Numbered from the stretch's first letter, positions 627 through 6,015 are shown. The stretch: 6,058 nt of DNA from a virus (IMGVR_UViG_2675903609_000008); one strand, 5' to 3'. Made by a program: numbers and translations. Notes: generated by a model not told the origin, from the letters alone.

Positions 627-1250
627 GTGGAAATTAAAAAAATCATTAATCCCCGTTATACCGAAAGTGGCGCAGTAGACTGTGACGTTTTTTTTGACGA
701 CAGGGACCAGGCAGTCCCCTACACAGCCACCGCTGATGATGTCGCTCCGACGGGTCAGCAAATCTGGCAGGAACTGCAAAGCGGCAAATGGGGTGAGATA
801 GCCCCATTCACTGTGACACCAGAAATGCTGGAAGCGGCCAGANNNNNNNNNNNNNNNNNNNNNNNNNNNNNNNNNNNNNNNNNNNNNNNNNNNNNNNNNN
901 NNNNNNNNNNNNNNNNNNNNNNNNNNNNNNNNNNNNNNNNNNNNNNNNNNNNNNTGTTCACGTTTGAATGGAACGGTCGTATCTGGAATGCTGGTCCCGA
1001 CTCACTGGGCCGCCTGTCCCCGGTAGTCATGCTGGCAAAATCTGTCACAGCACAAACACATATGGCGTGGAGCGATGCCGATAATCAGCAGGTGAAACTG
1101 TCGATGCCGGAACTGGAAGAACTGGCGGCAGCAATGGTGCAGGCGCAGGTCGATCGCAACGATGAGATTTATCGCCGTCAGCGGGAGCTGAAGGAAGAGC
1201 TGAATAGTCTGAAGGATTTGAATTCGGTTAGGAATTTTATCGTGGAATAA
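627..1250 (+). CDS. Phage tail-fibre assembly/chaperone-like protein (DUF4376-like), interrupted by an N-run; likely GTG start at 627
   Basis: The 567..1250 ORF has a probable true start at GTG 627, preceded by GAGGAA at 615-620. The C-terminal half (FEWNGRIWNAGPDSLGRL...SMPELEELAAAMVQAQVDRNDEIYRRQRELKEEL) resembles prophage tail-fibre-associated proteins such as E. coli YfdK, from memory. It lacks the canonical Tfa C-terminal W..YR..L..VD motif, so the family assignment is tentative. The reading frame is preserved across the 843-954 N-run. Stop is TAA at 1248-1250. Confidence 0.45.
   Translation: MEIKKIINPRYTESGAVDCDVFFDDRDQAVPYTATADDVAPTGQQIWQELQSGKWGEIAPFTVTPEMLEAARXXXXXXXXXXXXXXXXXXXXXXXXXXXXXXXXXXXXXXFTFEWNGRIWNAGPDSLGRLSPVVMLAKSVTAQTHMAWSDADNQQVKLSMPELEELAAAMVQAQVDRNDEIYRRQRELKEELNSLKDLNSVRNFIVE
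843..954. other. Run of 112 N (masked or unresolved sequence) inside the tail-fibre-assembly-like ORF
   Basis: Directly visible in the sequence. The codon ending at 842 and the codon starting at 957 are in the same frame, with 114 nt (38 codons) between them. Confidence 0.99.
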
Positions 1251-1258
1251 CAGAAGCT

Positions 1259-1287
1259 GCGGCACGTCGTATGCAGGAACGTGCCGC
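1259..1287. terminator. Perfect 9-bp stem / 11-nt loop hairpin between convergent genes; candidate weak bidirectional terminator
   Basis: GCGGCACGT (1259-1267), loop CGTATGCAGGA, then ACGTGCCGC (1279-1287), an exact reverse complement. It lies 9 bp after the TAA of the + strand gene and about 165 bp beyond the sitD stop. There is no strong U-tract on either strand, so terminator function is uncertain. Confidence 0.3.
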
Positions 1288-1450
1288 GGTTGGCTGGTAA
1301 ACTTTCGATAGTGCGAGTATTGAATGATTTCTAGGCGTTATCGATTTTACGTATTTTTTGCATGATAGAATTCGTACCTCCTCCCAACGACCTTCCATGG
1401 CTTTCCGGACTTCTGTAGGCTGGCGGACGATGCTGTCCTCGGATGTTGTG

Positions 1451-2308
1451 CTAATTGGGTGATAACAGATCCTGTGTATGGGCGTTTCCCTTTGTGCGTG
1501 CGTTGATGCTGGTAACGGTAAACGTCATGATGAACACGACCGCGAATAAGACGACAATCGTCGGAGCTGGTGCGCTGTCGATAAAAAAGGACAGCCAGAC
1601 ACCAGTCATTGACACTATTACCGATATGCCAGTCGCCAGTAGGAGCGCAATATGAAAGCGTTGTGTCAGGAGTACTGCAATGGCGCCAGGCGCAATGAGC
1701 AGAGAAATAGAGAGAATGATACCTACTGCTTTCAGCGTCGCCACAATGGTCAGGGAAACCATGCACAGCAGCCCATAATGCAGCCATCTCGTATGCAAAC
1801 CGCTTACCTGCGCCTGTTGATAATCAAAGCTGAACAGCAAAAAATCCCGCCATTTTACGCTAATAACAAGTGTAACCAGCCCGGCAATAATCACCGTCTG
1901 GATTATATCGCCGATGGTTATCCCGAGCATGTCGCCGAAAAGAATATGGTCAAGATGTACGTCTGGTTTAATTGCAATATACAAGATCAGACCTGCGGCA
2001 AACATGCCAGAAAAAACAATCCCCATAACTGTATCTTGCTTGATTCGGCTGTTATCTTTCAGGTATCCCGTCGCCACCGCGCAGAATACTCCGGCGACGA
2101 ATGCCCCTGTAGCCAGAGGTAACCCCAGAATCCAGGTAAGCACGATGCCAGGAAAAACCGCATGACTCATCGCGTCACCCATCAGTGCCCAACCTTTCAG
2201 GACCAGAAAGACCGACAGCAGCGCACAGGGTATGGAAACTACCAGTGAAATCAGCAGTGCGTGACTCATAAAGGTGAACTGCAGTGGCTCCAGTAATAAT
2301 GCCATCAT
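1451..2308 (-). CDS. sitD: Mn2+/Fe2+ ABC transporter permease SitD
   Basis: 285-aa ORF, highly hydrophobic with multiple predicted membrane-spanning segments. It is last in a four-gene operon of binding protein, ATPase and two permeases. Its ATG overlaps the sitC stop (ATGA at 2308-2305 on the minus strand). Confidence 0.88.
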   Translation of the reverse strand: MMALLLEPLQFTFMSHALLISLVVSIPCALLSVFLVLKGWALMGDAMSHAVFPGIVLTWILGLPLATGAFVAGVFCAVATGYLKDNSRIKQDTVMGIVFSGMFAAGLILYIAIKPDVHLDHILFGDMLGITIGDIIQTVIIAGLVTLVISVKWRDFLLFSFDYQQAQVSGLHTRWLHYGLLCMVSLTIVATLKAVGIILSISLLIAPGAIAVLLTQRFHIALLLATGISVIVSMTGVWLSFFIDSAPAPTIVVLFAVVFIMTFTVTSINARTKGNAHTQDLLSPN

Positions 2309-3162
2309 GAGCGATCCTCCAGCGCTTTATGCGCACGCCGACGATTTGCCAAAAGTCCATGGGTGGGCGCAAATACAAATGCTAAAAGAAACAGCAGTGT
2401 CTGCGCCACCACGATGATTCCACCTGTCGCGCCGTCCAGAAAGTAACTGACCCACGCGCCGAGGAAACTGGTTACACTGCCAATAGTTACAGCAATTATG
2501 AGCAGGCGGGGAAAACGATCGGTTAACAACCATGCTGTTGCACCGGGAGTCACCACCAGACAGATCACCAGAAAGGCACCAACCGTTTGCAGCGCCGCAA
2601 CGGTCGAAACCGACAGCAGGGTGAAGAAGAGGATTTTTAATCTGCCCGGATGTAATCCAATAGCACGGGCGTGATTCTCGTCGAAAAAGGTCACCATAAG
2701 ATCTTTCCATTTGAAAAAAAGCACGATGATCGAGAGAATGCCAATGATAGTGAGTTGCAGGATATCCGCCGGATCGATTGCCAGAATATTGCCCAGGACG
2801 ATGGTCTGAATGTTCACGGATGTCGGGTTCAATGACACCATAAACAGCCCCAGGCCAAAAAAGGACGAGAAGATCAGGCCGATGATGGCATCTTCTTTTA
2901 AGCGGGTGCGTTGGTTAAGAAACAGCATGCTGCCCGCTGCCAGTCCGCCGGAAAAGAAGGCTCCCAGAGAAAACGGAAGCCCCAGCATATATGCCCCCGC
3001 AACACCCGGGACAATAGAGTGCGACAGCGCATCGCCAATCAGCGACCAGCCTTTTAGCATCAGATAGCATGACAGGAAAGCGCAGAGACCGCCGACCATT
3101 GCCGAGACCCACATCGCATTGAGCATATATTCATAGCTGAAGGGTTCCAGTAGCACGTTCAT
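2305..3162 (-). CDS. sitC: Mn2+/Fe2+ ABC transporter permease SitC
   Basis: 285-aa hydrophobic ORF, paralogous in layout to sitD. Its start overlaps the sitB stop (ATGA at 3162-3159 on the minus strand). Confidence 0.88.
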
Positions 3163-4954: not shown

Positions 4955-4980
4955 TATAGCATAACCTATACAAAATGAAA
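4953..4980 (-). promoter_or_regulatory. Candidate sigma70 promoter of the sit operon (-35 TTTCAT, 16-bp spacer, -10 TATAAA, read on the minus strand)
   Basis: Minus-strand reading gives TTTCAT (plus 4975-4980), a 16-nt spacer, then TATAAA (plus 4953-4958). The predicted transcription start falls inside the MntR palindrome and the -35 overlaps the Fur-box-like site. This is a hexamer match by eye only. Confidence 0.4.
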
Positions 4981-4995
4981 ATAATTATCATTAAC
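4977..4995 (-). promoter_or_regulatory. Fur box-like operator
   Basis: The minus strand reads GTTAATGATAATTATTTTC, which matches the 19-bp Fur consensus GATAATGATAATCATTATC at about 15 of 19 positions. It overlaps the candidate -35 upstream of sitA. Confidence 0.6.
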
Positions 4996-5109
4996 AGCTT
5001 TGAGGCCTAAAACAGGGATTAGGTTGTTTCCTGCTGGCGACATGATATTGAGGAAAAAAGTAGAGCAGCTATTAGGCTTTGAAATGACTTTATGAGGAAA
5101 ATTGTTGAT

Positions 5110-5355
5110 GGCAAAAATGGGGCAAAACGCTGTATAAGGGGCAAAAAAGGGGCAAAAAAGAGTGGGTTATCGTAGCTTATTGTTGTCGCTGATAATGTTT
5201 AACATATTGAAAAATAAATAAAATACTTATGAGTCAGATAGTTGTGATTTTTGCCCTTACTTGTTCAGGTTGTATTGTTCTTTCTTTGTAATTTGTTGAT
5301 TTTCTTGCATTATTTCAGTTCTCTGGTACTAAATGGGGCAAATTGGGGGCAAACT
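5110..5355. repeat. Cluster of GGGGCAAA(A) motifs: two tandem 11-bp-phased pairs, a single copy and one inverted copy; candidate integrase arm-type or att-derived sites
   Basis: Direct copies at 5119-5127, 5138-5146 and 5149-5157 (a perfect tandem 11-mer AAGGGGCAAAA x2 at 5136-5157), 5335-5342 and 5345-5353. An inverted copy (TTTTTGCCC) lies at 5248-5256. The region is AT-rich and sits between the sitA promoter and the integrase stop codon. Confidence 0.55.
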
Positions 5356-5361
5356 TTGCAA

Positions 5362-6015
5362 CTACGATAACCGCGCATTCAACATGGCTATCTGTTCGTC
5401 GTTCATGTCATCAATCCACATACCGTAAATTTCATACACCATTTGCGCAGTTTCATGCCCCATCTGGCTGGCTATAAATGCCGGGTTCGCTCCTGCCGTC
5501 AACAGCCAGCAGGCAAAAGTATGTCGCGTGTGGTACGGATTACGGCGGCGAATACCAGCACGTTTTACTGCTGCATTCCATCTTGTACCCAAACTGCTTA
5601 CCGAGTAATAAGGTTTCTGTTTTTCGTTACACACCCTGGGCATGAAAACAAAATGCAGTTTTTGTTTTTCAGTTCTGCCGTACTCCCGATGATAAAAAGT
5701 GATTTCGCTTTTGCGATGATGCCCGGTCAGTTTGTATTGCTCCTTCAGTGCTTCAAGAGCCGGCTGCAGTAATGTTACCGTCCGGATCCCGGCATTTGTT
5801 TTTGGGGGACCGAACATATCAAGTATCGTCAGGTTTCTTCTGACATTCACAATTCCCTTCTCGAAATCCACATCCTCCCACGCCAGAGCTGCCAGTTCCC
5901 CGTGACGAAGCCCGGAGTAAACGGCAAATTTCCACAAGTTTTGGCTCTGTCCTTTTTCACTTTCCATTAATGCATTGAATTCTGTTTTAGATAACGGGTC
6001 AGGTAATGCTGCCAA
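5362..6015 (-). CDS. Phage-type tyrosine integrase, C-terminal catalytic domain only (likely truncated or disrupted)
   Basis: 217-aa ORF with tyrosine-recombinase catalytic motifs: the conserved Arg in ...YSGLRHGELAAL..., the H-x-x-R box HTRHTFACWLL, and the tyrosine region ...AQMVYEIYGMW. Only about 35 residues precede the catalytic Arg. The ORF begins at a TTG, and an in-frame TAA lies at 6025-6027 on the minus strand, so the arm-binding and core-binding domains are absent in this frame. Confidence 0.8.
   Translation of the reverse strand: MAALPDPLSKTEFNALMESEKGQSQNLWKFAVYSGLRHGELAALAWEDVDFEKGIVNVRRNLTILDMFGPPKTNAGIRTVTLLQPALEALKEQYKLTGHHRKSEITFYHREYGRTEKQKLHFVFMPRVCNEKQKPYYSVSSLGTRWNAAVKRAGIRRRNPYHTRHTFACWLLTAGANPAFIASQMGHETAQMVYEIYGMWIDDMNDEQIAMLNARLS

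Follow-up and report, generated by a model that had tools for sequence, protein, structure and literature searches.

A sitABCD cargo cassette beside a predicted Rac-type attP and an IS1-broken intR in Shigella-type DNA

The sitABCD operon is known from several mobile settings. It was found on 70% of infant-gut Escherichia coli lambda phages, where it was counted as a moron with a Fur box upstream (Mathieu et al. 2020, PMC6969025). In the Shigella pathogenicity island (PAI) 'PAI sit', the operon lies among phage-like genes and many insertion sequences (IS), and the island is unstable (Fisher et al. 2009, summarised in PMC7545054). The Rac prophage integrates in the 5' end of ttcA, beside intR/xisR, and thereby gives a variant TtcA N-terminus (Liu et al. 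2015, PMC4632033). The DNA analyzed here is a viral stretch of 6,058 nucleotides, IMGVR_UViG_2675903609_000008 (the window), in which sitABCD stands between a tail-fibre-module gene and an AT-rich segment followed by an integrase gene. The window is probably the circular-junction region of a Rac-family phage (IntR/XisR, ttcA-targeting), kept in vegetative order within a Shigella-type chromosome. The sit operon as a lambdoid moron, the Shigella sit island with its phage genes and IS elements, and the Rac att site with IntR have already been published; what is added is a predicted intact and unused Rac-type attP, the IS1-disrupted intR, the boundaries of the sit cassette and a sibling prophage carrying ipaH3.

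Phage 21 (OL657228) and the infant-gut phages Lambda_ev, 1H12 and ev017 share with the window the same operon with the same ends, in the same slot, oriented against the late genes and preceded by a Fur box. However, those lambdoid phages are viable and have integrases and att sites of other kinds (phage 21 inserts into icd), whereas the att/int pair here is of the Rac/IntR type and int is broken by IS1; the tail module of the closest intact relative is of the contractile-baseplate type, unlike that of the sit lambdoid phages. K-12 Rac has the identical att core, a P arm at 94% identity, a P' arm with intR at 97% nucleotide identity, an IntR protein at 99% and the same ttcA start, but there the arms stand as attL and attR with 23 kb between them and the slot holds pinR/ynaE/ynaM without sit, while in the window the arms are joined into an attP next to sit. 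The window's exact junctions occur in S. flexneri chromosomes; in the PAI sit summary (PMC7545054) there is no mention of an intact Rac-type attP, of the identity of IntR or of a sibling ipaH3 prophage. Tandem polylysogens of lambdoid phages, such as those in E. coli H22 and Jnd12, have the same order of tail end or cargo, attP and int within a chromosome. ColV/ColBM-type plasmids carry the same 3.65-kb cassette, but in a plasmid context without phage att or int beside it.

The att region was identified by alignment to the two ends of Rac. The AT-rich segment (4901-5361) has a GC content of 0.34-0.37. By Blast, window 5109-5303 matched the attR end of K-12 Rac on its prophage side at 93.9%, and window 5261-6003 (core, P' arm and intR) matched the attL side at 96.9% nucleotide identity. 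In the alignment to the two Rac ends, the part left of the core includes three GGGGCAAAA repeats. The Rac att core, TTGTTCAGGTTGTATTGTTCTTTCTT, is exact at 5261-5286, and this 26-bp sequence was found exactly twice in the Rac region of MG1655, at the two prophage ends (locus L003, positions 3900 and 26960). Since the left flank follows attR and the right flank follows attL with intR, the P arm, core and P' arm are joined in the window. Codons 1-16 of ttcA are embedded on the minus strand (5310-5261), and their translation, MQENQQITKKEQYNLN, is the TtcA N-terminus. Judged by these alignments, the AT-rich segment is a complete, intact attP of the Rac/IntR type, whose P' arm would carry the replacement ttcA start. 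The order of tail fibre, cargo, attP and int, which the first-pass annotation had likened to the vegetative lambdoid layout, is thus borne out, the repeat-rich segment being the Rac-type attP. No tRNA was found in a scan of the window, so this is not a tRNA-targeted island.

Short repeats mark both arms. The motif GGGGCAAA has five copies in the window, where 0.31 would be expected, all of them within 5119-5353. In the P arm, (G)GGGCAAAA repeats begin at 5110, 5119, 5138 and 5149, with an inverted copy at 5248-5256; this inverted copy and one additional degenerate copy adjoin the core. The (G)GGGCAAA repeats are limited to the two att arms and are conserved in K-12; they are putative arm-type IntR binding sites. 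The presence of Fur and MntR boxes in the same intergenic region might instead suggest that the segment is a mere sit promoter region with chance repeats, beside an unrelated int remnant. However, the boxes lie at 4933-4995, within the portable cassette, whereas 5109-5361 is homologous to both Rac att junctions, with the exact core and the embedded ttcA codons, and is absent from the sit copies of phage 21 and of plasmids, which diverge at 5085-5091. That explanation is refuted.

Table 1. Features of the window, with positions counted from its first letter
Feature	Position	Strand	Basis
IS element end fragment	1-58		100% to short stretches beside rve-type transposase genes (loci L006 and L007)
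IS66-family tnpA, 5' part	58-448	+	HTH_Tnp_1, 1.2e-12; 99.7% to L008 8880-8490, beside TnpB_IS66
Side tail-fibre gene, last 168 nt (phage_tail_N family)	449-616	+	Aligned to the 3' end of L001 13900-15168; PHROG 'tail fiber protein'
DUF4376 tail-fibre-module gene	567/627-1250	+	Pfam DUF4376, 1.5e-10; PHROG 1141 'tail fiber protein', 2e-88
GC-rich hairpin between convergent DUF4376 gene and sitD	1255-1292		-31.2 kcal/mol, z = -3.15; conserved
sit cassette (sitABCD with promoter region), ~3.65 kb	1431-5085	-	Ends common to phage and plasmid copies
sitD permease	1451-2308	-	ABC-3, 1e-75; sitD in relatives' annotation
sitC permease	2305-3162	-	ABC-3, 4e-83
sitB ATPase	3159-3986	-	ABC_tran, 9e-31
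sitA periplasmic binding protein	3986-4900	-	ZnuA family, 9e-86
Candidate MntR-type palindrome, AAACATAGC-N4-GCTATGTTT	4933-4954		Exact; 0 in 200 shuffles
Candidate Fur box	4977-4995	-	16/19 against GATAATGATAATCATTATC; 0 in 200 shuffles
Predicted attP P arm	5109-5260	+	93.9% to K-12 Rac attR, prophage side
att core, TTGTTCAGGTTGTATTGTTCTTTCTT, 26 bp	5261-5286	+	Exact in the window and at both Rac ends of MG1655
Predicted attP P' arm	5287-5361	+	Two GGGGCAAA repeats (5335, 5346); aligned to the prophage side of K-12 Rac attL
intR, 3' part	5362-6003 (ORF to 6015)	-	IntR residues 199-411; 210/213 identical to K-12 IntR
IS1 terminal inverted-repeat end	6002-6058		100% to IS1 termini (InsA/InsB genes) of L006-L008

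The int gene reads toward the AT-rich segment, and its product matched the tyrosine-recombinase catalytic domain PF00589 Phage_integrase (4.6e-24) and PHROG integrase (1e-47). The early call of an int gene transcribed toward this segment stands, although only the IS1-disrupted C-terminal 213 residues are present rather than a whole gene. In the complete chromosomes described below, IS1 is followed by the first 57 codons of intR and then by xisR, and 423 bp of intR have been deleted. The integrase is adjacent to the site and cognate to it (99% to IntR), but it is dead, with IS1 inside the gene together with this deletion. Over 20 E. coli genomes of diverse host origin share an intR deletion endpoint, at which the match stops at window 5593, beside a contiguous attP. 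This endpoint points to a single old attP-int' scar, widely inherited or spread.

All four sit genes are intact, uninterrupted and overlapping, and relatives at 98-99.8% identity bear the sitABCD annotation. By gene content (cluster A-I binding protein, ATPase and two ABC-3 permeases) the operon is predicted to encode an ATP-binding cassette (ABC) importer of the SitABCD type for Mn2+/Fe2+. The sitDCBA genes on the minus strand face the plus-strand DUF4376 gene, so that the operon does converge on the tail-fibre side as first described, and the control by Fur and MntR that had been proposed is matched by candidate motifs for both regulators upstream of sitA, inside the portable cassette. A consensus scan of the window for sigma-70 promoters and terminators gave no enrichment over shuffles, and no promoter or terminator claim was built on it. 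Downstream of sitD, no canonical intrinsic terminator was found, only the hairpin. Since the cassette brings candidate MntR and Fur sites with it and runs against the late operon, a lysogen could make the Mn2+/Fe2+ importer in response to host metal regulators, whether or not phage genes are repressed. A GC content of 0.46-0.54 (~0.50) for the sit genes, against 0.44-0.50 for the DUF4376 and int genes, showed that sit is similar in composition to its flanks and not distinct from them, only the att region being AT-rich. No RNA family was found in an Rfam scan of the window at the gathering threshold.

The boundaries of the cassette were defined by comparison with other sit copies and with sit-less relatives. 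The segment from 1431 to 5085-5091 is present at ~98% identity in phage 21 and in ~25 other sequenced lambda-like phages, and a cassette with the same ends occurs on 1025 plasmid records at 97-98% identity. Phage 21 is arranged as J, side tail fibre and two small genes, then sitDCBA on the other strand, followed by several small open reading frames (ORFs), attP, int and xis; the placing of sitABCD in the b-region position of morons is thus upheld by viable lambdoid phages. The conserved hairpin (~1263-1293) forms the left edge of the slot, and several E. coli matches start at 1263-1265. Alignment to a sit-negative genome, which the first pass had proposed for finding the insertion boundaries, gave 37 bp from hairpin to P arm in K-12 Rac against 3.8 kb here; since both ends are conserved, the hairpin and the P arm bound the slot. 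The sitABCD operon is a self-contained cargo cassette between the last tail-fibre-module gene, with its hairpin, and the P arm of attP. It is dispensable in the manner of a moron, K-12 Rac having no sit in the slot and a sibling phage of enteroinvasive E. coli (EIEC) having ipaH3 there instead. A block of hairpin, sit, P arm and core corresponding to window 1264-5303 was also observed at 97% identity in the record of Salmonella phage SPF_0923 (ON032529.1, 27953-31994), so the combination of sit and a Rac-type right end is not limited to E. coli/Shigella.

In its simple integrated form in E. coli, this cassette lies at the right end of a prophage in ttcA. The order sitA, P arm, core, B', uspF was found in 495 of 5426 complete E. 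coli genomes. These genomes agree with the expectation that a simple integrated prophage keeps int and the tail-fibre end apart. An intact 48-kb sit prophage in ttcA is present in EIEC CFSAN029787 (NZ_CP011416.1; loci L001 and L018), where ttcA, attL, intR and xisR are followed by early genes, the Q region, four tRNAs, lysis and head genes, a contractile tail with baseplate, fibres, DUF4376, sitDCBA, attR and uspF. In this closest intact sit phage (L001 1-15742 and L018), the early and regulatory genes are lambdoid and Rac-like, while the tail is contractile, with a baseplate module (baseplate J/gp47, hub and spike), and not of the lambda type.

A contiguous attP was found in 28 E. coli genomes, with sit attached in seven of them (sit-attP-int'). 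One of the seven, H22, was examined and is a tandem prophage at ttcA, arranged as ttcA, attL, intR through J, lom, stf, a major facilitator superfamily (MFS) gene, sitDCBA, attP, int' (231 bp), a remnant and uspF. In Jnd12, J, lom, stf, tfa, pin and attP are followed by a prophage with full intR, xisR and recET. From these two structures, adjacency of the tail end and int arises at ttcA via tandem prophages. In H22 the gene between the tail-fibre genes and sit is a Bcr/CflA MFS efflux gene (L002 18222-19424), so the slot there has more than one cargo unit; the early region of the same sit prophage carries the anti-phage pair iteA/iteS (L017 11315-14708). A frameshifted metal ABC permease fragment beside uspF in H22 (L002 25685-26285) was considered as a second sit copy and rejected, since it shares just 67-70% identity with sitD; it is what is left of a divergent sit-like operon that belonged to an earlier occupant of this site.

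The junctions of the window were then located in Shigella-type genomes. S. flexneri SFBU1023 and one record titled E. coli share the exact int::IS1 junction, at loci (L004 and L005) nearly identical to the window but distinct from it, and the exact int product of 217 amino acid residues is encoded on 19 contigs, including three complete chromosomes of ~4.6 Mb. On the far side of IS1 are the start of intR, xisR, an AAA ATPase gene, gam, recE, ydaE and kilR, all interrupted by IS3-type elements; past sit come DUF4376, a fibre gene, a Caudo_TAP gene and IS elements, with a Q region in one strain. In L006 and L007, each side is colinear with one end of the CFSAN029787 prophage (96.5-99.7% identity), attP being the joint. 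With the chimeric ORF 67-678 of the window as a handle, CP007037.1 was followed further on its int side: after kilR and Rha come a truncated IS66 (IS66'), the 3' end of a fibre gene, a second DUF4376 gene, orf59, ipaH3, pphA, yebW and yebV.

An intact sibling of this second prophage is found at pphA in EIEC FDAARGOS_943 (L026, NZ_CP065615.1 826000-875900). Many proteins of the FDAARGOS_943 and CFSAN029787 prophages are identical by accession and the backbones are near-identical, but the pphA prophage has a different int/xis/att module and carries ipaH3 directly after DUF4376. The same cargo slot therefore carries alternative virulence cargo, the type III secretion system effector gene ipaH3 or sitABCD. 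In EIEC VL7S7 (L027, NZ_CM177009.1 606000-644000), ttcA, attL and intR are followed, after one prophage length, by DUF4376, ipaH3 and pphA, while sit and attR lie at 1110144-1114939 of the same record, ~500 kb away. This arrangement implies a large chromosomal inversion via recombination between two sibling prophages. The strain VL40 appears similar to VL7S7, judging by coordinates.

On the left, the window begins with IS sequence that runs into the tail-fibre module. The chimeric ORF 67-678 consists of the 5' part of tnpA reading on into out-of-frame phage DNA (203 aa); it is annotated as a gene, and the assembly collection indexes it in 203 blocks. Its exact product was found in many Shigella-type chromosomes, and the IS66'-fibre junction is fixed and widespread among Shigella-type genomes. 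The next gene, annotated in relatives from ATG 567 and not from 627 as in the window ORF, had been called tail-fibre-assembly-like. This identity was not upheld: the Pfam search gave DUF4376 only, without a match to Caudo_TAP (PF02413), so that it is a DUF4376 tail-fibre-module gene and not Tfa. Relatives have a separate Caudo_TAP gene upstream of it.

A run of 112 N (843-954) lies inside the DUF4376 gene, where every relative has 52 nt, making the window 60 nt too long. Window 58-842 is 99.87% identical to the ipaH3-linked DUF4376 copy with its IS66' junction, while from 955 onward the window is 100% identical to the sit-linked copy and the ipaH3-linked copy is only 95.8% identical. Because the flanks of the N run match different paralogous copies, window 1-842 may not be physically joined to sit as drawn. 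A scaffold gap or misjoin at a repeat could account for the switch, as could masking over a real recombinant, a duplication or the junction of a circle. These same features (the N run, the paralogous sides and the surplus length) would fit a view in which the whole vegetative order is an artefact of assembly or scaffolding, or an excised circular or plasmid form and not chromosomal. That view is very improbable: the N run touches only the part left of 955, leaving the sit-attP-int adjacency unaffected, and sit-attP-int'::IS1 is continuous in the three complete chromosomes and SFBU1023 as well as over 10 draft contigs. In the complete chromosomes, fibre, DUF4376 and sit are likewise contiguous.

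As for how the Shigella arrangement arose, we infer that the sit phage on balance more likely joined the sibling ipaH3 prophage through homologous recombination than formed an Int-made tandem. Its genome, as a circle, would have recombined with the prophage at pphA, which shares its backbone but differs in int/att and has ipaH3 in the slot. This event would never have used attP for insertion, and would have left a sit-attP-int block between direct fibre-DUF4376 repeats. Later insertions of IS1, IS66 and IS3-type elements, together with deletions, would have frozen the structure. This route is favoured because S. flexneri 301, 2457T, 8401 and 2002017 are reported to have an ancestral TtcA N-terminus and no rac-like prophage in ttcA (PMC4632033), because the reviewed Shigella sit island is flanked by aspS/yecN, and its instability is ascribed to homologous, not site-specific, recombination (PMC7545054), and because no second att core was found within 40 kb around the Shigella locus at up to 3 mismatches. 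The recombination between sibling prophages in VL7S7 also counts for it. The alternatives of two adjacent elements or of integration through a different site, which the first-pass annotation had offered for the adjacency of int and the tail-fibre end, are the explanations favoured by this evidence.

In the Int-made tandem, IntR would have put the sit phage, itself of the Rac family, into attL/attR of a resident Rac-family prophage and restored a complete attP, with the newcomer's sit end on one side and the int of the resident on the other, with inversions and IS deletions following later. The tandem structures of H22 and Jnd12 and the 28 E. coli genomes with contiguous attP, seven with sit, are consistent with such an event, as are the likeness of the Shigella int-side prophage to the VL7S7 hybrid that starts at ttcA-attL and the location of int in CP007037.1 at ~1.40 Mb, near the K-12 Rac position. 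Nevertheless, we consider this origin possible but unlikely for the Shigella locus, given the four S. flexneri strains without a rac-like prophage in ttcA, island flanks that are not ttcA/uspF, and the lack of a second core in the 40 kb searched. With ttcA reported empty in S. flexneri and the block abutting the pphA prophage, an Int-mediated tandem is not the favoured route there.

Several points weigh against the circular-junction reading or against entry by homologous recombination. Among sequenced phage records there is none with a contiguous Rac-type P-core-P', the Rac-like records having the prophage permutation, and the arm-type repeats are putative IntR sites. The left junction of the sit-side prophage lies beyond the loci, so the route of entry was deduced and not read; in Shigella, IS elements and an unrelated integrase of 534 aa close off the loci before that junction is reached. 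This integrase, at the far end of L008, was considered as that of the sibling phage and rejected, since nothing in the EIEC loci resembles it. H22 and Jnd12 directly document a tandem origin at ttcA, which would leave the same local structure, and the report of an empty ttcA covers S. flexneri strains other than the chromosomes used here. Finally, the window's own left end is unreliable owing to the N run.

With direct fibre-DUF4376 repeats and an intact attP, the sit-attP-int block might still be mobilisable. RecA-dependent loop-out would release a circle with sit and attP, which IntR/XisR supplied in trans from any Rac-family prophage could insert into ttcA of a new host, and the hybrid junction at the N run would then be a trace of such a circle or of tandem amplification of sit. 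We regard this as improbable.

The comparison gives a tidy account of a known island and opens no new question. The unstable sit island of Shigella is tied to one particular phage lineage, of the Rac/IntR type and targeting ttcA, whose apparently unused att site has been kept. The comparison helps to explain the loss of sit by RecA-dependent deletion, and it helps to explain how one 3.65-kb metal-uptake cassette has spread, through phages, plasmids and recombination from prophage to prophage.

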